DNA of 25,675 bases from a virus (taxonomy: Duplodnaviria; Caudoviricetes), in the IMG/VR virus record IMGVR_UViG_3300016484_000593, positions 1-25,675 of that record; one strand, given 5' to 3'. Numbering within the stretch: position 1 is the stretch's first letter; each line of letters begins with the position of its first letter. Positions 1-20,538 of this stretch are shown piece after piece. Both the position numbers and the translations under genes were made by a program. The notes below the pieces were generated by a model. It had not been told where the DNA came from. It saw only the letters and a list, made by a program, of their open reading frames with translations, and did no database searches.

Positions 1-1
1 G

Positions 2-85
2 GCGCCGGCCGTCATCAACGAAGAGTTTGGCATCGCGGTCGCGGAGTCGTTCGCGCGCCTGCAGGCGTCGAGGGCCGGCGGGTGA
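2..85 (+). CDS. 3' end of an upstream phage gene (partial)
   Basis: Frame 2 reads APAVINEEFGIAVAESFARLQASRAGG to TGA at 83-85; the start is outside the window. Confidence 0.4.
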   Translation, partial: APAVINEEFGIAVAESFARLQASRAGG

Positions 86-115
86 GGGCGGATCGGGTGG
101 CCGGCTGTGGGTTTT

Positions 116-172
116 GCGGGTCCTTCCCCACCCGCTCGCGCGCGGGTCCGTTCCGGCGCGCGATTGCGCTAG
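116..172 (+). other. Putative cos region (cosQ-like GGGTCCT at 118-124, cosN expected just downstream)
   Basis: GGGTCCT is the lambda cosQ sequence and lies ~90 bp upstream of the small terminase gene of a gpA-type terminase phage. The exact nick site cannot be placed. Confidence 0.55.
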
Positions 173-212
173 TCATGGCGGTTGGTGATTTGTTCGGTCT
201 TCAGTACGGTCT

Positions 213-752
213 ATGCCTGTAGGTTCGGTCGAACTCATCAGCAAAAGCGACTACGCCCGCCGCCGTGAGTGCACTGAGGCCGCTGTCCGCCGTGCTGTTC
301 GTGATGGCCGAATCTCACTTATCGACGGGAAAATCGACCCGGTAGCAGCCGACGCTCAATGGGCGCGAAACACGCGCGTGCGCGCCGGCAGCAAACCAGC
401 AGATTCAGCCAACATTGGCGCGCAGTCATCCGGGTCGTCAGGCGAGACGCCGTCGAGGGAAGAAAACGACGCCTATTGGGCCGTCAAGGCCCGCCGCGAA
501 AAGGCCGAGGCCGACATGGCCGAACTCAAGCTGGCTGAGCTTCAGGGCGAACTGGTGCGCCGCGCCGACATCGACGCCATCCACGCGCGCCATGCTGCCC
601 TGTTCCGCGAGCACTTGCTGCAGTTGGCCACCCGTATCACGCCTGTCATCGTGGGGTTTGGTGGCGACGAAGCCAAGATTCGCGCTTTGATCGACCAAGA
701 GCACCGCCAGGCGCTCCAGCAATTTGCGGGGGTGCCAGATGGGGGCGCGTGA
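213..752 (+). CDS. Terminase small subunit (Nu1-like)
   Basis: N-terminal winged-HTH-like ISKSDYARRRECTEAAVRRAVRDGRI and coiled coil REKAEADMAELKLAELQGELV; overlaps the large subunit start. Confidence 0.85.
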   Translation: MPVGSVELISKSDYARRRECTEAAVRRAVRDGRISLIDGKIDPVAADAQWARNTRVRAGSKPADSANIGAQSSGSSGETPSREENDAYWAVKARREKAEADMAELKLAELQGELVRRADIDAIHARHAALFREHLLQLATRITPVIVGFGGDEAKIRALIDQEHRQALQQFAGVPDGGA

Positions 753-2859
753 CGACATCTTCGCGGCGCAGGCCGAAGCCTTCTACCAGAAGATCTTGCT
801 GGCACACATGGCCCCGCCACTGGCAATGTCTGCGTCGGGCTGGGCCGACCGGTTCCGCCACATCGCTAAAGGCCCCGAGCGCGGCCCGTGGCGCACGTCT
901 CGCACGCCGTACCTGGCCGAGCCCATGGCCTGCACAGACCCAGAAAGCCCGGTGCAGCGCGTATCGATGATGTTTGCCACGCAGCTCGGCAAATCCGAAG
1001 TCATATACAACGCGGTTCTCAAGCGCATTCACTTGCAGCCCATGGACATGATGATGGTCCAGCCCACGCTGCAAGACGGCAAGGACCACAGCCGCGAGCG
1101 CTTCATGCCGACCGTGCGCGCCACACCTGCCGTGCGTGACCGCATGCCGAAGGCGACTTCGCGCGACGAAACCAACACCTGGCAAACCAAGCAGCTGCCC
1201 GGCGGAGCAACCCTGTACTTCGCCGGTGCCAACAGCGCCCGCAGCCTGGCGTCGAAGCCATTGCCGTTTGCTGCATGCGACGAAATCGACGGCTATCCGC
1301 ATGACGTCGACGGCGAGGGCGACCCCCTCGGCCTGGTGTGGGAGCGTATGTCCAACTTCGGACAGCGAAAGCTCATCCTGGCCAGCACGCCAACCACCAA
1401 AGGATTCAGCCGCATCGAAGAAGAATATCTCGCCGCCGATCGCTGCCGCTACCACGTGCCATGCCTGCACTGCAACACGCTGCAGACGCTGGAGTGGGGT
1501 GCGGGCGCGGCCTGGGGCATCAAGTGGCTGAAAACCCCCAGCGGTGAAGCCAGGCCAGAAACCGCCGTCTATGTCTGCCGACACTGCGGCAGCACCCTGC
1601 AGAACCACCAGAAAACCGACATGCTGGCTGCCGGTCTGTGGGTGCCAGAAATGCCGGGTGCGCAGAATGGATTGGCGCGCAGCTTCCACCTGAACAAGCT
1701 CTACAGCCCCGTCGGTTGGAAAAGCTGGTCCATGCTGGTGGGAGACTGGGAAAGGGCGCAAGAGACAGCCCGCGCGGGCGACAGCACCAAGCTCAAGACT
1801 TTCGTCAACACGTCGCTGGCGGAGACATGGGAAGACGCAGGCGACCGCGCCGACGAGCACGCCCTGCGCAAACGCGCCGCCGACATCCCCCTGCGCCAGG
1901 TGCACTGGGGCCTGTTCGTCGCCACAATGGGCGTCGACGTGCAAGGCGATCGCCTGGAGGCCTACACCTGGGCCTGGGGCCGCGATCTCGAACGCCAGCT
2001 TGTCGATCGCCAGGTCATCTACGGCGACCCAGCCATCCCAGAAACCGAAGCCGGCAGCCCTTGGAAAGCGCTCACCGACCTGCGCCGCGCCCCGCTCAGC
2101 CACGCCAGCGGCCGCACCGTGCCACTCATGGCCGTGGCCATCGACTCCGGCGGCCACCACACCCAGGCCGTCTACACCTACGTCCGCAGCCACCAGCACG
2201 CCCACGTCATCGCCGTCAAAGGCAGCAGCCAGCCCGGCCGCGCGATTCTCGGCAAACCCACCGAGCAGGATGTCAACTGGCGCGGCCAGAAAATGCGGCG
2301 TGGCGTCAAGCTGTGGCCCGTCGGCACCGACACCGCCAAGGCCGAAATCTACGGCCGCTTCCGCGTCGCCGATGTCGGTCCCGGCTACGTGCACCTCAGC
2401 AAACATCTGCCCGCCGACGTGTTCGAGCAACTCACCGCCGAACGCCTCGTCACCCGCTACGTCAAAGGCCGCCCGCGCCTCGAATGGGTCAAGCCCGCCG
2501 GCAAACGCAACGAAGCCCTCGACTGCGCCGTCTACGCCCTCGTCGCCGCCCATTACCTCGGCATGGAACGCTGGCGCGCCCACGAATGGGCTAAGTGGGA
2601 AAGCCTCGCCCAATCGCGCGACCTGTTCGACGGCCCAGGCACCGCCCAACCAGCGGCAACCTCATCGGCCGCCACCGACCAAGCCGCCACCGTCGACGCG
2701 GCAACCGCCACCCCGCAATCTAGCAACCACGGCCCCGTATCCAGTAACCCCGACGCTGAAGGCAGCAACAACGCCACCCCCACAACCCGCCCGCCGCTGC
2801 CCGCCCACGCCCGCCCGCAACCCCGCAGCACCGCCCGCCGCCTGCAGCGCGACTGGTAG
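739..2859 (+). CDS. Terminase large subunit, lambda gpA family
   Basis: GPWRTSRTPY, Walker A ATQLGKSE, Walker B ACDEIDGYP, STPT, CLHC/CRHC zinc pair, GVDVQ, IDSGG and RNEALDC motifs. ATG 739 is preferred over TTG 724. Confidence 0.97.
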   Translation: MGARDDIFAAQAEAFYQKILLAHMAPPLAMSASGWADRFRHIAKGPERGPWRTSRTPYLAEPMACTDPESPVQRVSMMFATQLGKSEVIYNAVLKRIHLQPMDMMMVQPTLQDGKDHSRERFMPTVRATPAVRDRMPKATSRDETNTWQTKQLPGGATLYFAGANSARSLASKPLPFAACDEIDGYPHDVDGEGDPLGLVWERMSNFGQRKLILASTPTTKGFSRIEEEYLAADRCRYHVPCLHCNTLQTLEWGAGAAWGIKWLKTPSGEARPETAVYVCRHCGSTLQNHQKTDMLAAGLWVPEMPGAQNGLARSFHLNKLYSPVGWKSWSMLVGDWERAQETARAGDSTKLKTFVNTSLAETWEDAGDRADEHALRKRAADIPLRQVHWGLFVATMGVDVQGDRLEAYTWAWGRDLERQLVDRQVIYGDPAIPETEAGSPWKALTDLRRAPLSHASGRTVPLMAVAIDSGGHHTQAVYTYVRSHQHAHVIAVKGSSQPGRAILGKPTEQDVNWRGQKMRRGVKLWPVGTDTAKAEIYGRFRVADVGPGYVHLSKHLPADVFEQLTAERLVTRYVKGRPRLEWVKPAGKRNEALDCAVYALVAAHYLGMERWRAHEWAKWESLAQSRDLFDGPGTAQPAATSSAATDQAATVDAATATPQSSNHGPVSSNPDAEGSNNATPTTRPPLPAHARPQPRSTARRLQRDW

Positions 2860-2868
2860 CCAACCGCC

Positions 2869-3264
2869 ATGACCCACACCGCAACCCCAACCGCAGCCGC
2901 CCCCGTCGTGCCCGCCGCTCCCACCGCGTCCATCGCCACAGCGCCGCCCCCCGCGCCGCCCGCCGACGACACCGACGACCTCGTCGCCCGCATGCTCGAC
3001 TACCTCGTCAAGCTCAAACCCGACCTGGCAAAGCAACGCAAGGCCCTGGCCGACGACATGCGCAAAGAATTCGGCGGCCAACGCTGGTACGTCGCCAGCC
3101 GCCAGCCCACCGAACGCCAAGAACGCATCGCCGCCATCCTCGCCACTTTCAACGGCCGCAACGCCAGCGAAGTCGCCCGAACACTCAAAATCAGCCGCGC
3201 CACGGTGTACCGCGTGCTCAAGCAGCCGGGGCGGTTTGCGCGGGCGGAAGGGGGCAAAAAGTGA
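2869..3264 (+). CDS. Mor/C-family transcription activator
   Basis: FGGQRWYV followed by FNGRNASEVARTLKISRATVYRVLK (C-terminal HTH), typical of Mu Mor/C homologues. Confidence 0.85.
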   Translation: MTHTATPTAAAPVVPAAPTASIATAPPPAPPADDTDDLVARMLDYLVKLKPDLAKQRKALADDMRKEFGGQRWYVASRQPTERQERIAAILATFNGRNASEVARTLKISRATVYRVLKQPGRFARAEGGKK

Positions 3265-3425
3265 AGGCCATGCACTGGCTGCAATCCCGCCTGAAAGCCT
3301 TGCGAGCGCGCCGCAAACTGGGCGCCTGCTTCTGGTATTTGAAATCGGAAGTCAAAACCAAGCGGCGCGACGTACTCAGCTACCACTGCCGACGCTGCGG
3401 CCTTCCGCATGACAACCATTTTTAA
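3261..3425 (+). CDS. Small hypothetical protein, 54 aa, with C...HCRRCG possible zinc ligands (not in the ORF track)
   Basis: GTG overlaps the Mor stop (GTGA). Reads MKAMHWLQSRLKALRARRKLGACFWYLKSEVKTKRRDVLSYHCRRCGLPHDNHF; the TAA lies inside the core TTTTAAC of attC-like site 1. Confidence 0.55.
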   Translation: MKAMHWLQSRLKALRARRKLGACFWYLKSEVKTKRRDVLSYHCRRCGLPHDNHF

Positions 3426-3506
3426 CGCGGAGTTAACCGGCGCCCACGGTGGCACCCACGAAACGCGAGGACGCCGACAGGCGTCCGGTTGAACGCACTG
3501 TTAGGC
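3420..3506 (-). mobile_element. attC-like site 1 (87 bp)
   Basis: Minus strand: R'' GCCTAAC, 5 nt, L'' GTTCAACC (extra C), GG[A]CGCC ... GGCGCC, L' GGTTAAC, 5 nt, R' GTTAAAA. Canonical attC layout with two extrahelical bases. Confidence 0.88.
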
Positions 3507-3520
3507 CCTGGTGGCCGGAG

Positions 3521-3724
3521 ATGAAACCGATGAACTGCCCGAATGTGTATTGGGTAACTGAACTCGTGAAGCTGACGCAGACGGTGGCGAGTTCGCACCC
3601 CACGCTGGGGTGGACGCCAGCCCGCCCGATTGGCTGGCAGGGGTTCGCCTTGCGCAGCCGCTTCCGTGCCGCGTGGCTGGTGTTCACCGGCAAAGCTGAC
3701 GCGGTGCGGTGGTTTGAGGCCTAA
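3521..3724 (+). CDS. Cassette A hypothetical phage protein (WxPARP...AAWLVFTGKADAVxW type)
   Basis: ORF fills the space between attC-like sites 1 and 2. GGAG at 3517-3520 (start 3521 or 3530); stop TAA inside GCCTAAC. Confidence 0.75.
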   Translation: MKPMNCPNVYWVTELVKLTQTVASSHPTLGWTPARPIGWQGFALRSRFRAAWLVFTGKADAVRWFEA

Positions 3725-3816
3725 CGTTGGAGCTAACACGGAGCCAGCGGCGGGAAGGACTGGACAGGAGCAAAGGCCGCGACCCGTTGGCGCTCGTGTT
3801 GAGCGACGTGTTATGC
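3719..3816 (-). mobile_element. attC-like site 2 (98 bp)
   Basis: Minus strand: R'' GCATAAC, 5 nt, L'' GCTCAACA ... L' TGTTAGC, 6 nt, R' GTTAGGC, with an imperfect inner stem. Confidence 0.85.
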
Positions 3817-3850
3817 GGCTGGTGAACGAAGGCACGAAAGGGCGAGAGCG

Positions 3851-4183
3851 ATGGAATGGCCGAAGAAACGGACGGTAGGACGATGCGGCGATATGGGGCC
3901 TGCAGGCGACCACCAGATGGTCCTGCATTTGCAGGACGACGGCGATGTAGTGCTGGCTGTTACCGGCACGGGCATGGGCAGCCAAGTTCACACCAGCACG
4001 GTGGAGTTTTGCGCTGGCGGCGCTGGCGGCGGCCGTTCGATGCGAACCCGCGACGCCCTGATTGCGCTGATGGTGGCAATGGAGGCCGACAACGCCGAAA
4101 GCCCGCGCGCTGCATGGCCGCCCGCGCGCCACGAGCCGCCTAACGCAAAGCTAAACGGCGGCCCGCCAGGGCCGTCCGTTTGA
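3851..4183 (+). CDS. Cassette B hypothetical protein (VEFC..GGGGRS..T..AL..L..A...DN type)
   Basis: ORF fills the space between sites 2 and 3; its last codons (PNAKLNGGPPGPSV) read into attC-like site 3. Confidence 0.75.
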   Translation: MEWPKKRTVGRCGDMGPAGDHQMVLHLQDDGDVVLAVTGTGMGSQVHTSTVEFCAGGAGGGRSMRTRDALIALMVAMEADNAESPRAAWPPARHEPPNAKLNGGPPGPSV

Positions 4184-4197
4184 GCGACCTGTTAGCC
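4138..4197 (-). mobile_element. attC-like site 3 (60 bp)
   Basis: Minus strand: GGCTAAC AGGTC GCT[C]AAAC GG[A]CGGCCC TGGC GGGCCG CC GTTTAGC TTTGC GTTAGGC. Same size and layout as the classic short 59/60-base elements. Confidence 0.92.
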
Positions 4198-4231
4198 GGC
4201 CAGGTGAAAACCGGCACAACCTAGGAAAGCA

Positions 4232-4459
4232 ATGGAAACTTTCGTGCAACCGAAGATCACCGGATACCGCCAACTGAACGAGGCGGAAGCTGCGCTGATG
4301 AACGAGATCAAGGCCGAGGGCGTGAAGCTGGGCGAGCTGGTGGCGAAGCTGCGCGCAACCGATGGCCTTGACCAGCGGTGGGTGAGCATCGGCGCCACCG
4401 ACCTGCAGACCGGCCTGATGGCGCTGACGCGCGGCGTGGCCCAGCCCACGACGTTCTAG
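4232..4459 (+). CDS. acb2: Acb2-like anti-CBASS cyclic-oligonucleotide sponge protein (cassette C, gene 1)
   Basis: KITGYRQLNEAEAALMNEIK...RWVSIGATDLQTGLMALTRGVAQPTTF matches the Acb2 pattern as I recall it (KIKGYRDLS.EEI..MN..K...RW.AIG.TD.QTG.MA..RA.AQP..F). RBS AGGA at 4223. Confidence 0.85.
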   Translation: METFVQPKITGYRQLNEAEAALMNEIKAEGVKLGELVAKLRATDGLDQRWVSIGATDLQTGLMALTRGVAQPTTF

Positions 4460-4461
4460 CC

Positions 4462-4728
4462 ATGAGCCGAGCCGACGCATTGCGCCCGATGCACCGCAGC
4501 GTGCTGGAGAAGCAGGCACGCGCCCGCGGCTACCGGCCGCGCCCGGTGAACATGAACACCGTGGCGCTGCCTGCCGAGGCGCGCGAGTGCATCGAGAGCA
4601 TTGCGCTCGGCATCTTCACCGACATGGTGAACAGCGGCGCCACGCTGCAGGAGACGCTGGCGGCCGTGTACCTGAGCGGCAGCGAGAACGCACTGGCGGC
4701 GTACCGCGAGCCGGCTAACACAATTTGA
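4462..4728 (+). CDS. Cassette C gene 2, hypothetical 88-aa protein
   Basis: ATG 2 nt after the acb2-like stop; MSRADALRPMHR...AVYLSGSENALAAYREPANTI. The last codons cross the terminal GGCTAAC core. Confidence 0.7.
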   Translation: MSRADALRPMHRSVLEKQARARGYRPRPVNMNTVALPAEARECIESIALGIFTDMVNSGATLQETLAAVYLSGSENALAAYREPANTI

Positions 4729-4749
4729 ACGACACCCATGTCGCATAAC
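4713..4749 (-). mobile_element. Putative attI-like site closing the cassette array
   Basis: Minus strand: GTTATGC GACATGGGTGTCGTTCAAATTGT GTTAGCC. A core site with a second GTT-type box 30 nt upstream and no attC-type partner arm. Confidence 0.5.
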
Positions 4750-4800
4750 CTGGCGCCTTCCCACCACCCAACCCATTGATTCCAAAGCCACCCAAGCCAT

Positions 4801-4833
4801 TTATCACGACACCGCACCAGTTATCACGACACC
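4801..4833. repeat. Direct repeat TTATCACGACACC x2 (20-bp period); ACGACACC also at 4729-4736
   Basis: Seen at 4801-4813 and 4821-4833. Confidence 0.85.
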
Positions 4834-4861
4834 CACGCGCCCGCCACACCGCCCACCCCAA

Positions 4862-4892
4862 AGTCTCACCCTTGCCTACCCCTGAGACACCC
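4862..4892 (+). promoter_or_regulatory. Putative late-promoter/activator box 1 (GTCTCA-N14-TGAGAC)
   Basis: 31-bp element 30/31 identical to 11155-11185; both end 19 nt before a structural gene start. Confidence 0.7.
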
Positions 4893-4911
4893 TAACCGGT
4901 AGTCTCAGCCC

Positions 4912-5136
4912 ATGGCGTACACCCAGACCGACCTCGACAGCCTAGACGCAGCCATTGCCTCGGGCCACCGCCGCGTGTACGTCGAAGGCCGCCAAGTCGA
5001 ATACGCCACCACCGAAGAACTCCTGAAGGCCAGAAGCCATGTAAGCGAGCAACTCAAAGCAGGCGCAGCGTCCGCATCTGGCGCCACCCGCCGCGGCGTC
5101 TTCCGCTTCCGCAACACCACCGTGCGCGGCGACTGA
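4912..5136 (+). CDS. Head-to-tail joining protein, gpW-like
   Basis: MAYTQTDLDSLDAAIASGHRRV...GRQVEY...EL..AR, directly before a lambda-type portal. Confidence 0.85.
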   Translation: MAYTQTDLDSLDAAIASGHRRVYVEGRQVEYATTEELLKARSHVSEQLKAGAASASGATRRGVFRFRNTTVRGD

Positions 5137-5155
5137 AAGCGGGCAGGGCGCACCC

Positions 5156-6631
5156 ATGAACCTCATCGACCGCGTCGTCGGCTACCTCGACCCTGCCGCC
5201 GGCATCCGCCGCGCCTACCAGCGCCGCCAGCTCCAGCGCGCCTATGAGGCCGCCAGTCCGCGCGACACCTGGCGCCCGCGCCGGCAAAACGCCAGCGCCA
5301 ATGCCGACCACGCGGCAGACGCCGCCACCCTGCGCGCCAAAGCCCGCACCCTGGTGCAAAACGTTCCCTACGTGCGCGCCGGCCTCGAGGGCCTCGTCAG
5401 CTACACCATCGGCACCGGCATCGTCAGCCGCGCAACAGACGCCCGCACCGCCGCCGCATTCAACGCCGCTTTCGCCGCCTGGTCCAAAGTGTGCGACGCC
5501 GACGGCCGGCTGGACTGGCCCGGCATCCAGGCCGCCGCCTACCGCGCCATGGAGCAAGACGGCGAAGTCCTCATCCGCCTGCGCCCGCGCCGCCCGTCCG
5601 ATGGCCTGCCCATCCCGCTGCAACTCCAGATGCTGGAAATCGACTGGCTCGACACCAGCCGCAGCGGCGTCATCGAAGGCGAGAACACCATCAACGGCAT
5701 CGGCTATGACGCCCTCGGCCGCCCCGCCGCCTACTGGCTGCACGACACCCACCCCGGCGACATGGGCCTGGCCGCCGCATTCACGCGCCGCACATCCAGC
5801 GTGCGCATACCCGCCCGCAATATCGTCCACCTCTACGCGCCCGACCGGCCTGGGCAGGGCAGGGGCTTCACCCGCCTGGCGCCCATCATCGCTCGCGCCC
5901 GCGACAACCAGCTCTACGAAGACGCCGAACTAGCCCGCAAGAACCTCGAGAGCCGCCTCGGCATCGTCGCCAGCGGCGACGTGTCCACCCTGGGCGACGG
6001 CCCACCGTCTGGCGCCACCACCAGCACCGCCACCAGCGGCGACCTGGGCGAGCTCGCTGGCGGCGGCATCCTGCAAGTGCCCGCCGGCCTGAACTTGACC
6101 GCCATCGAGCCCAAGGCCATGCCCGGCTACGTGGACACGCTCAAGTTCAACCTGCAGCTCATCGCCAGCGGCCTGGGCGTTCCCTACGAACTCATGACCG
6201 GCGACGTGAGCCAGACCAACTTCAGCAGCGCCCGCGTCCGCCGCCTCGACTTCAAGAAAGCCGTCGAAGCCACCCAATGGCTCACCGTCATCCCCCGCCT
6301 GATTGAACCCGTTCTCACCGCCGCCCAAGACGCCGCCGTCCTCGCCGGCATCATCCCCCGCGCCGCCCACCAGTTCGACCACAGCTGCCCGAAATGGGAC
6401 TACGTCAACCCACAACAAGACGCCGAAAGCGACCGCCTCGAAATCGCCAGCGGCCTCAGCACCCTGAGCGAAAAACTCCGCTCCCGCGGCTACAACCCCC
6501 AGGCCGTGTTTGACGAAATCAAGAGCGACATGCAGGCCCTCGAAAAAGCCGGCGTGCTCGACCTGCTGCTGGCATTGCAAGGCAAGACCAAACCGGGCGC
6601 GGCGCCTGCCAACACGGGGGGCGCAGCATGA
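5156..6631 (+). CDS. Portal protein, lambda family
   Basis: AYEAAS, LRAKARTLVQN, DGEVLIR, RPGQGRG, GVPYELMTGDVSQTNFSSAR and WDYVNPQQD motifs. Confidence 0.96.
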   Translation: MNLIDRVVGYLDPAAGIRRAYQRRQLQRAYEAASPRDTWRPRRQNASANADHAADAATLRAKARTLVQNVPYVRAGLEGLVSYTIGTGIVSRATDARTAAAFNAAFAAWSKVCDADGRLDWPGIQAAAYRAMEQDGEVLIRLRPRRPSDGLPIPLQLQMLEIDWLDTSRSGVIEGENTINGIGYDALGRPAAYWLHDTHPGDMGLAAAFTRRTSSVRIPARNIVHLYAPDRPGQGRGFTRLAPIIARARDNQLYEDAELARKNLESRLGIVASGDVSTLGDGPPSGATTSTATSGDLGELAGGGILQVPAGLNLTAIEPKAMPGYVDTLKFNLQLIASGLGVPYELMTGDVSQTNFSSARVRRLDFKKAVEATQWLTVIPRLIEPVLTAAQDAAVLAGIIPRAAHQFDHSCPKWDYVNPQQDAESDRLEIASGLSTLSEKLRSRGYNPQAVFDEIKSDMQALEKAGVLDLLLALQGKTKPGAAPANTGGAA

Positions 6632-9698: not shown

Positions 9699-10781
9699 AT
9701 GTGGGGCGGCGCACCATGGGGTGATCTGGCGTGGGGCGATGCCCCTGCCAGCGCTGCGCAGTCCGCGGCCGGAACGGTAGCGGCACGAAGCGGCGCCACC
9801 AGCGCGGCGGCCGGTGCCAAAGCATCGCAAGCCTCGGCAGCGTCAAACGCCGCCCCACGATCCGGTAGCGTTGGCAGCAAGGCCGCAGCATCGTCCACCT
9901 CATCGACCGTCAGCGCCAGGTCGTCTGTCACCGGGCAAGCGGCGGCCCTGCCGCAAGGCGTGGCGTCGTCACGCGTGGGTGCCAGGTGCTCAGTCGCTGG
10001 GGGTAAGTCATCCAGTAGCAACGCCTCGACCGCGGTCGGCGTCGCGGCATCGTGCACGGGCGCCAAACTGGCGAGCGCTACCTGGGCTTCCCGTGCCGGT
10101 GTGCGCGGAGGCGCCCCGGGTCGGGTCGCATCCATCCCGCAAGGCATCGCATCGTCGCGCGTCGGCGCTCTTTGCTCAGTCGCCGGCGGCAAAACGGCCG
10201 CCGCCTCTACCGCCAGCACGGCCGGCGCTGCCGCGTCGTGTGTTGGCGGTAAAGCGTCCAGCAGCCTCTGGGCCGCGCACGTTGCAGCTTTGGCCAGCGC
10301 TCCCGGCCAGGCCGCGTCGATACCGCAAGGTTTGGCATCCTCACGCGCTGGCGCGCGGGCCTCGGTCGTCGGCAGCAAGGGCACGGCGGCTGTTGCGTCT
10401 GCATCGGCGGCAACTGCCAGCGCAACGATCGGCGGGAAGCAAGCCGGCAACACATGGTCCACCCGCGCCGGCACGCGAGCCAGCGCGCCCGGCCAAGCTG
10501 CGGCCGTCCCGCAAGGCGTGGCGTCGTCCCGCGTCGGCGCCCGGTGCTCGGTCGCTGGCGGCAAATCGGCCGGCGCCTTCGCGTCTACCCGATGCGCAAG
10601 CACAGCAGCGTCCAGTGGCGCCAAGCAGGCCAGCAGCGCGTGGACATCCCGCTCCGGCGCGCGGTCGGCCGCTCCCGGCCGCATCCCATCCGCCGTGCAA
10701 TTCGTGCCCGGCAATCCCGACGTGTGGCTCATCCCCTACCGCCAGCGCGTCGTCACCATCAACCCGCACCGCAGGGCATGA
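9699..10781 (+). CDS. Ala/Ser/Gly-rich repeat protein, probably fibrous and structural
   Basis: N-terminal MWGGAPWGDLAWGD; PQG.ASSR.GA recurs every 62 aa. Confidence 0.7.
   Translation: MWGGAPWGDLAWGDAPASAAQSAAGTVAARSGATSAAAGAKASQASAASNAAPRSGSVGSKAAASSTSSTVSARSSVTGQAAALPQGVASSRVGARCSVAGGKSSSSNASTAVGVAASCTGAKLASATWASRAGVRGGAPGRVASIPQGIASSRVGALCSVAGGKTAAASTASTAGAAASCVGGKASSSLWAAHVAALASAPGQAASIPQGLASSRAGARASVVGSKGTAAVASASAATASATIGGKQAGNTWSTRAGTRASAPGQAAAVPQGVASSRVGARCSVAGGKSAGAFASTRCASTAASSGAKQASSAWTSRSGARSAAPGRIPSAVQFVPGNPDVWLIPYRQRVVTINPHRRA
9930..10690 (+). repeat. 186-bp degenerate tandem repeat, ~4 copies (bounds approximate)
   Basis: CCGCAAGG at 9951, 10137, 10323 and 10509, an exact 186-bp spacing. 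Confidence 0.9.
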
Positions 10782-18999: not shown

Positions 19000-20538
19000 A
19001 TGGGCGCCGGGTTTCATTTTCATTTCGACGCCGACCTCACGGACGAGCGCGGGCACAGTTGGACCGCGTCGGGCTCGCCGGCTATTCAGGCGGGCGCCGC
19101 CAAATTCGGGGCGGGCGGTGCATATTTCAACGGATCCTCTGGCCTTTACATCCAGCCATCGACGGGCAGTGACTTCCGCGCCACCGGCCAATTCACGCTA
19201 GAGGGCTGGGCGCGCCTAGATACCGCCGGCGATGGCCACTTGGTGGCCATGATGCAAGGCGGCGAGTCGAATTACCACTCTGCATGGAGTATCTGGTACA
19301 CGAGCGCGGCGCTCATCCTCTACAGCGGCTACCACGGCAACATCGTTACCGCGGCCAACCCGCCACGGAACACACTATTCCACTTTGCGTGGACACGCGA
19401 CGCCGCTGGCGACATGCGCCTCTTCATCAATGGCGCCCTGCAGCAGTCAGCCGTCTTCAACGACTGGGTCATCGATCCCAACATTCTGACGATCGGCACC
19501 TATGTTTCGGCCATCGGGAACAACTACGCCAACCTCACAGGGGCACTAGACGAACTCATTTTCGATATTGGCGTTTGCCGCTACACCGCCAACTTCACGC
19601 CCCCCACTGGCCCCTTCACCGGCCCCGCGGAAGCCCGCATCGCCTCCCCCGGCCCGCTCGGCACCCCCGCGCTGCTCGGCCACCACCAATTCGCCGGCCT
19701 ATCGGCGGCTGGCCCCCTGGGCGCCGCGGCCCTCGTCGCCTCGCAGTACTACGCCAGCCTCGCCGTCGACGGCCCGCTCGGCGCCCCCGCGCTGCTGGGC
19801 TTCCAGCAGTCCGCCATCGTCGCCGCTGCCAGCCCACTGGGCACACCGGCCCTGCTGGCCGCCCAGCAATTCGCCAGCCTCGCCGCCCCCGGCCCGCTGG
19901 GCACACCGCAACTGCTCGGCACCGTGCCCATCGTTGGCGTCATCGGCACACCCGGCCCCCTGGCCGCGCCGCAGCTCCTGGCCTGGCACGACTTCACCAC
20001 CGGCCTCACCGGTGCCGAAGCCATACGCTACGTCATGGACCTCGTCACGCCCGGCGGTCTGGTGCGTGTGCCCATCAGCAGTTGGCAGGCCACGCTGCAG
20101 ACCGATTCGGCCTGCTACGTGCAATGCGTGGTTCCGGCCGCCGCGCCATGGGCCAGCGCCATCCTGGCAGCCACCGACTTCGTCATCAGCCGCCAGGCCA
20201 CCACCGCCGGCGGCCAGGTCATCGAGTACGAAATGGCCCGCAGTGCGCTGGAGGTGCGCGAGCCCAGCCAAGGCCCCAACAACTACACCATCGTCCTGAG
20301 CGGCTACCCCGACGCCCTCACGCCCAACGACAACCCACCCGCCGCCCAAGACCGCGCGCTGACCGGTGTGCGCAGCGTCGCCGGCCTGCCCGGCAGCGTG
20401 CGCATGCGCGCCAATATCGACTGGCTGCTGCGCCCCGGCATGCGCGCCACCTACGCCAGCCAAGACATCCTGGTGGACTACATCAACTACTACGTGCCGG
20501 GCAACGACCAGTACATGGATGTCGGGGAGCGCTCCTGA
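19000..20538 (+). CDS. Tail protein with N-terminal LamG/ConA-like lectin domain and 20-aa repeats
   Basis: AKFGAGG.YFNG...FTLEGW...HFAWTR...RLFING...G.LDEL...GVCRYTANFTPPT.PF, then GPLG.PALL repeats. Confidence 0.8.
   Translation: MGAGFHFHFDADLTDERGHSWTASGSPAIQAGAAKFGAGGAYFNGSSGLYIQPSTGSDFRATGQFTLEGWARLDTAGDGHLVAMMQGGESNYHSAWSIWYTSAALILYSGYHGNIVTAANPPRNTLFHFAWTRDAAGDMRLFINGALQQSAVFNDWVIDPNILTIGTYVSAIGNNYANLTGALDELIFDIGVCRYTANFTPPTGPFTGPAEARIASPGPLGTPALLGHHQFAGLSAAGPLGAAALVASQYYASLAVDGPLGAPALLGFQQSAIVAAASPLGTPALLAAQQFASLAAPGPLGTPQLLGTVPIVGVIGTPGPLAAPQLLAWHDFTTGLTGAEAIRYVMDLVTPGGLVRVPISSWQATLQTDSACYVQCVVPAAAPWASAILAATDFVISRQATTAGGQVIEYEMARSALEVREPSQGPNNYTIVLSGYPDALTPNDNPPAAQDRALTGVRSVAGLPGSVRMRANIDWLLRPGMRATYASQDILVDYINYYVPGNDQYMDVGERS
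19645..19985 (+). repeat. 60-bp degenerate tandem repeat, 6 copies (xGPLGxPALL)
   Basis: GP/SP codons start at 19651, 19711, 19771, 19831, 19891 and 19954. Confidence 0.9.

Follow-up and report, generated by a model that had tools for sequence, protein, structure and literature searches.

The window analysed here is a whole phage record of 25,675 nt, 55% complete, in which the plus strand encodes the terminase, Mor, head-tail adaptor, and portal. The gap between mor and portal measures 1922 nt, versus at most 430 nt in 55 of 66 distinct relatives; judged by this comparison, the additional DNA is an insert at the mor-portal spot of a phage backbone. It holds three attC hairpins, four genes behind them, and a likely orphan attI (site D), after which come the gpW and portal genes (Table 1). 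The palindrome at its right edge is a candidate binding site or promoter for a Mor-type activator. A 54-aa ORF directly behind mor has no hairpin in front of it and is therefore not an intact cassette; it had no family match in Pfam or PHROG and no clear homologue in the fetched loci. No cultured phage with the array was found, and the three cultured-phage matches were to Acb2 only. Elsewhere in the window, the contig end (25640-25675) resembles the 3' half of a tRNA gene and is a possible prophage attachment site (ARAGORN found no whole tRNA in the window), and degenerate coding repeats occur in two virion-region ORFs (9931-10589 and 19633-19932; 186/372-nt spacing and four 60-nt units).

Table 1. 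Features of the insert and its edges, in window coordinates; a slash between two positions marks the crossover point
Feature	Position	Strand	Basis and remarks
mor-family late activator gene, upstream backbone	2869..3264	+	PF08765, E 1.4e-10; phrog_532
54-aa ORF	3261..3425	+	First crossover lies on its TAA stop; not preceded by a hairpin
attC site A	3420..3506	- (top strand = minus)	Covariance model E 2.2e-9; bulged G and T on +; crossover 3425/3426
Cassette A	3426..3724	+	Hairpin A and gene starting at 3521 or 3530 and ending at 3724 (phrog_21988); its stop is the TAA of crossover B
attC site B	3719..3816	-	Covariance model E 3.6e-8; crossover 3724/3725
Cassette B	3725..4143	+	Hairpin B and gene 3851-4183; the AAC of crossover C is an in-frame Asn codon of this gene, which continues past it
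attC site C	4138..4197	-	Covariance model E 2.9e-8; crossover 4143/4144
Cassette C	4144..4718	+	Hairpin C and two genes (4232-4459, 4459-4728)
Acb2-family gene	4232..4459	+	PF24729 (Acb2/Tad1), 61 bits, cut-off 27; PDB 8h2j (p26), E 1e-10
89-aa gene	4459..4728	+	Reads through crossover D as in-frame Asn; 49 homologues
Site D, likely orphan attI	4717..4836	+	Crossover 4718/4719; simple site and repeated boxes; no intI after it
Conserved backbone palindrome, right edge of insert	4863..4888		Present in 42/66 relatives, normally close behind mor

A sequence-only reading of this DNA had proposed that the cassette genes are inverted relative to the polarity of their attC sites, a claim that it staked beforehand on the strand of covariance-model matches. 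With a model built from 14 class 1 attC sites, each taken on the annotated coding strand, sites A, B, and C matched on the minus strand only (E values of 2.2e-9 to 3.6e-8); the next-best match in the window had an E value of 0.07, and the sole plus-strand match, at 19861, had 0.58. A two-arm weight matrix gave the three sites 39, 27, and 42 bits on the minus strand versus 4, 7, and 3 bits on the plus strand, and in a leave-one-out control it identified the coding strand correctly for all 14 known sites. Our structural detector located the bulged G and T of all three hairpins in the plus-strand right arm, opposite the AAC arm, and found no sites in 20 shuffles of the window; in six class 1 plasmid regions it placed the bulged form on the non-coding strand in 6/6 sites detected. 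The arm bases quoted in the earlier reading are present where it had placed them, and the only 6-nt spacer is indeed on the left (spacers of 5/5, 6/5, and 5/5, the 6-nt one in site B). Extrahelical bases have been placed on the bottom-strand arm opposite AAC (Nivina et al. 2016, PMC5027507); because the bulged G and T here sit on the plus arm opposite AAC, the plus strand is the attC bottom strand. Family matches and homologues put all four cassette genes on this same strand, as had been claimed. For the first gene the codon model could not decide (12.0 bits plus versus 11.7 bits minus), and its orientation comes from homology.

The earlier reading was thus right about polarity but not about extent: its span of 3420-4197 contains only two of the four genes, the array extending to the fourth crossover (4718/4719), and it overlooked the attI-like site that begins at 4717, the second gene's membership in the third cassette, the presence of Acb2 among the cargo, and a phage IntI clade described below. 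Folding both strands as single-stranded DNA, which it had also suggested, did not tell the strands apart; in unconstrained DNA folds the canonical hairpin appeared for site C only, site A misfolded, and forcing the R-box pair costs 5-7 kcal/mol on either strand. A general repeat finder did not place the attC sites among its top families.

Sites A, B, and C each form an imperfect hairpin of R''/R' and L''/L' arms with bulged bases opposite AAC, and by comparison only, their crossover lies in R' at G/TT. With at least two attC sites and no integrase nearby, the array has the makeup of a CALIN. A classical gene cassette has its ORF on the top strand, upstream of attC and readable from Pc, and here 4/4 genes are on the bottom strand. 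Such a layout could arise if ordinary bacterial cassettes had been inserted upside down by top-strand recombination, which does yield reversed cassettes (PMC5027507), or it could be only apparent if the true genes were on the minus strand, where long ORFs are present. The junctions, however, lie at R' and not at R'', the cargo consists of phage genes on the plus strand, and the minus-strand ORFs have no convincing family match (six were tested against each database, with no match to Pfam and one weak match to PHROG: 4459-4800, HNH, E 8e-4). As far as these comparisons go, both versions are largely refuted, and we consider them extremely unlikely.

Each unit runs from AA/C to AA/C, with the hairpin first and the gene after, and the same units occur in other phages. 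The gene of cassette A follows a similar hairpin in L040 and L041, where different hairpins come after it, and it occurs without any hairpin in L039, in a non-cassette version with 87% protein identity. Cassette B recurs among other neighbours in L172 (98.2% identical over 451 nt), and two elements in one sequencing run differ by 3 bases in their copies of it. In run X1 it forms a separate unitig (3717-4146) with a depth of 24 versus 8-10 for its flanks, though this run may be the source of the window and is therefore not independent of the window assembly. Cassette C recurs in L178/L179 (92.7% identical over 551 nt) in a match that ends at 4719, and contigs of runs X9, X11, and X12 also cease matching there. 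Homologues were found for genes 3851-4183 and 4459-4728, supporting plus-strand coding.

At all three window sites, R'' resembles the distal end of the unit to which it belongs more closely than the junction next to it (in cassette A, 8/10 positions matched downstream versus 4/10 at the left junction; in cassette C, 10/10 versus 9/10). The downstream end was likewise the better fit in 19 of 25 viral pairs (left better in 3, tied in 3) and in 50 of 59 cellular pairs among the matches listed (left better in 2, tied in 7). Because homologues break at the bottom-strand AAC, the mobile unit is a hairpin together with its downstream gene or genes. The limits set by R'' and by homology therefore put the cut at its normal place, so that the gene is reversed and not the chemistry. 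It is very likely that the folded plus strand would be cut at the AAC opposite the bulged G by ordinary integron chemistry.

The way genes end at these junctions invites a different account, in which the hairpin alone is mobile, lands at stop codons of resident phage genes, and creates cassettes as by-products. Among 73 viral junctions, the gene stops on the crossover TAA in 33 and reads through in 13, always with AAC in frame; the stop lies no more than 15 nt away in 13 and further up in 2, and 12 were uncalled. Besides these 33 stop codons, the account can draw on close gene versions outside cassettes, such as that in L039 and the approximately 73 of 80 fetched Acb2 relatives that have no hairpin. 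It does not fit with hairpin and gene moving together at 93-98% identity or with an R'' that tracks the far end of its own cassette, and we regard it as very unlikely for this array; insertion of a hairpin alone may nevertheless be how new cassettes first arise.

Site D was examined as the place where cassettes would join. It is kept at the same place in L404 (76% identical from D to portal), which has a different single cassette and no intI, and a second element in run X1 shares 37 nt from D's AAC on, behind other upstream sequence (the common 37-nt unitig has a depth of 9, which is not the sum of its two branches). Site D thus occurs at the same base with three different upstream neighbours, in the window, L404, and the second X1 element. 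It aligns ungapped and in register with the site before intI in L381 of the L381/G026 branch (22/34 identical). A four-sequence attI HMM, chosen post hoc after this likeness had been seen, had its best match at 4719-4836 (E 0.007); a broad 45-nt attI HMM gave no match at site D, and among 39 viral records a D-type pattern occurred in one. On this evidence, in which the recurrence of D behind different neighbours weighs more than the model matches, site D is probably an orphan attI at which new cassettes would enter the promoter-distal end of the array, which would make cassette C the newest. A 17-mer at 4820-4836 was tried as the remnant of an intI start and rejected, as L404 has an inverted core-box copy there and the window has no start codon; it is a repeated box of uncertain origin. 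In a Methylococcaceae bin (L095:1360-1401, minus), a phage-type attI lies with a broken intI, yet the cassettes score as classical.

Alternatively, D may be no attI but a backbone feature whose AAC is a chance hit, the array having grown by serial insertion at GWT sites (attG) and at attC sites. An attG requires only GWT (10.1101/2022.09.11.507474), lone copies of cassette C lie at GAT-type junctions in L179 and L181, the array of a related phage (L328) begins on mor's own stop codon, and the broad attI model is silent at D. What this route leaves unexplained is the recurrence of D at one base with three upstream neighbours, its alignment in register with intI-adjacent sites, and its absence from the short mor-portal gap of most relatives. 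We therefore judge it unlikely and retain the reading of D as a probable attI. The lone copies themselves (L179:2905-3488, and L181) are on contig G043, where both Acb2 cassettes present lie at GWT-type junctions, one of them inside an apparent short coupled ORF of a head operon; no empty allele of the L179 insertion was found in cultured phages.

No tyrosine recombinase (PF00589) was found in the window, a contig that is 55% complete, and no intI stands beside the array. Among viral records with such sites, 2 of 46 had an IntI over the cut-off, as did 1 of the 8 near-complete ones. A search seeded with those two IntI sequences found 24 viral IntI loci. In the 21 that were examined (L397-L399, with class 1 intI1 at their edges, were left out), all 25 detected attC sites lie upstream of intI on the intI strand; the call was clearly inverted for 21 of these sites and classical for none. 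Immediately ahead of the intI start, 16 of the 17 loci tried share a conserved site (L400 did not fit the attI extraction). Thirteen viral IntI formed a clade with support of 95/96 versus 8 cellular and 2 other viral rows, in a tree with few cellular rows, a query-biased viral set, and duplicate and short IntI rows left out. The scarcity of intI, absent from this contig and from most viral records with such sites, would suit a non-IntI tyrosine recombinase (Xer-like) that moves the sites, or an array that is a frozen relic. We give these ideas only a very slim chance, as the sites fit the class 1 attC model, in relatives the same reversed layout has next to it an IntI that shows catalytic and IntI-patch motifs, and cassette B is 3 bases apart between two elements in one run. 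The integrase would more likely be IntI, and it would likely come from the host, from a co-infecting phage of the phage IntI clade, or from the missing 45% of the genome.

The survey of viral databases for attC sites with antisense ORFs, proposed in the sequence-only reading, found the layout in most of the viral loci that were scored. One polar pattern matched 38 viral loci (32 clusters) and at least 127 cellular loci of approximately 240 estimated stretches, 80 of them with full flanks. The structural detector misses junctions other than TAAC or AAAC (as in L179, L404, and 4/6 in L328), and its counts are therefore lower bounds. To score the strand of each flank, we trained a codon model on these loci's own long ORFs. 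Of 131 viral flanks, 103 were inverted, 2 classical, and 26 uncalled, versus 37 inverted, 245 classical, and 130 uncalled of 412 cellular flanks among the matches listed. At the level of loci, 31 of the 35 scored viral loci were inverted, 3 tied, and 1 classical, and the 104 scored cellular loci among the matches listed comprised 12 inverted, 23 tied, and 69 classical. The layout is therefore typical of phages (31/35 viral versus 12/104 cellular, among the matches listed), in agreement with the suggestion of a distinct phage-adapted cassette class, but it is not exclusive to them because those 12 cellular loci also look inverted. In a Rubrivivax integron (L055:832-1550), the cassettes nearest attI score as inverted and the next one as classical; from this arrangement, a reversed cassette may have entered a cellular array. 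By eye, the related phage L328 (3067-5250) has six reversed attC sites, two of them found by the detector, at the same mor-gpW spot, and its array ends in a box like the start of a phage intI.

The cargo of cassette C includes a predicted anti-CBASS sponge, the product of gene 4232-4459, which by sequence belongs to the Acb2 family. Between one shared leader and end, Acb2 is paired with any of three second genes (window/L179, L182, and L180), and in L260 a leader and end shared with the Acb2 cassettes enclose a Tad1 relative (E 1e-19) and the window's second gene. The L260 stretch (2549-3265) has its leader and end as in the L182 Acb2 cassette, and behind it come a D-like stretch and a DNA polymerase-like ORF. 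Among the 49 homologues of the 89-aa gene, the crossover motif marks the end of 25, and 24 different tails come after it. A structure model of the gene's product (pLDDT 80) matched no fold in PDB or BFVD at E 0.001, and the ESM Atlas gave only scores under 0.9 for two cargo genes. A loose pattern was also run upstream of Acb2; three of its ten matches (L235, L237, L243) were chance-like and were not counted as cassettes. In L185, L186, and L188, the ORF just before Acb2 (upstream of 3001) ends in an HxT-type motif, which we take to recall Acb1-like phosphoesterases. Acb2 blocks CBASS yet triggers Panoptes, which needs Acb2 (PMC12657218). As Acb2 is needed to trigger Panoptes, an excisable Acb2 copy would be favoured.

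The genes point toward the likely attI, so that a Pc there could not read them, which upholds the earlier view that they are not read from such a promoter. No sigma-70-type site was found on either strand within 1-5300, and no plus-strand terminator-like site was found in the array. The cassette leaders are 14-34 nt long, and the array genes are on the same strand as terminase and mor; read-through from the terminase-mor transcript, as earlier suggested, is plausible from this arrangement. We consider it probable that the phage's own terS-terL-mor transcript would read the cassette genes and that stops and Asn codons on the crossovers would keep translation intact after a swap. Inspection by eye suggests that cassettes of relatives have promoters of their own, and two L328 cassettes contain promoter-like sequence. 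A bottom strand that serves as the lagging-strand template raises excision (PMC5371416); if the genes run with the replication fork, the bottom strand here would be that template, with more excision as the result.

Overall, the array quite probably consists of three integron-type cassettes with their genes on the attC bottom strand, a likely attI at the end, an IntI enzyme that would be supplied from elsewhere and would swap cassettes, and reading by a phage transcript. There is about an even chance that the phage benefits by rapidly gaining and losing accessory and counter-defence genes. We speculate, more tentatively, that temperate phages of Betaproteobacteria may run an integron branch of their own, with an IntI clade, its attI, enzyme-less satellite attI docks, and reversed cassettes of their own genes. 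New cassettes would form in it by excision of a hairpin leader and operon genes up to a later AAC, and a fixed chassis would swap Acb2 and Tad1. If this were true, the creation of cassettes would have been caught in the act.

Integrons are regarded as devices of bacteria whose bottom-strand cutting serves to point genes away from attI and under Pc, and the first origin of cassettes has long been an open question. In this array that chemistry seems to be put to use for a reversed pool of phage genes that includes counter-defence genes. Other phages share these cassettes, and the phages likely trade in a mirror-image gene pool of their own through an outside integron enzyme. The reversal would keep phage and bacterial pools mostly apart, because a phage cassette, once taken up by a host integron, would face Pc. 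The origin of cassettes becomes testable through near-identical cassette and non-cassette versions of a gene and through one chassis with four cargo sets, and such arrays flag small phage genes worth screening for anti-defence activity. Bacterial cassettes, for their part, carry defence genes (10.1101/2024.07.02.601686).

Compared with known systems, the array works, as judged from its features, like an integron array that departs from classical gene orientation and is without intI and Pc. It shares with classical integrons (class 1 IntI1/attI1/attC) the attC anatomy, the bulge arm, the R' crossover, and the placement of attC and attI (and of intI, in relatives) with respect to one another. 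In contrast to them, the genes follow their own hairpin on the bottom strand and point at attI, where no Pc can read them; stops or Asn codons lie on the crossover; the newest cassette would be furthest from the promoter; and in relatives intI is co-directional with the cassette genes. The matches to the Acb2 (PDB 8h2j, p26) and Tad1 (PDB 8kbg, 7uav) sponges concern gene 4232-4459 and the L260 cassette, respectively, which fill the same slot; unlike approximately 73 of the 80 fetched Acb2 relatives, this gene is carried on an attC cassette that would be excisable.

Phage CALINs have been described as attC clusters without integrase, and IntI1 recombined their bottom strand more than the top strand (Qi et al. 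2023, PMC9892861). In phage PH101 (KR534323; L417), attC matches lie on the plus strand at 76529-76585 and 77931-77987, and 10/10 annotated genes of that stretch are on the minus strand (the gene calls are the depositors' and have no PHROG match). The bottom strand of PH101_attC2 as published (PMC9892861) reads on the annotated coding strand just before a gene. On this evidence PH101 is a cultured phage with the reversed layout, one site of which has already been recombined by IntI1 (PMC9892861); phage TJE1 is classical. The portions of Qi et al. available to us make no remark on gene-versus-attC polarity, and our literature search, which lay mostly outside subscription papers, found reversed phage cassettes described nowhere. 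The present array resembles phage CALINs in having attC sites without an integrase and, as with PH101_attC2, in having them on the coding strand, but it differs in its likely attI, traceable cassette traffic, anti-defence cargo, and associated phage IntI clade. Insertion at attG (Loot et al., 10.1101/2022.09.11.507474) involves the same GWT-type junctions as the lone cassette C copies in L179 and L181. In that report, however, ordinary cassettes enter bacterial chromosomes with no bias in transcription direction, whereas the cassettes seen here are inverted and co-oriented with phage operons.
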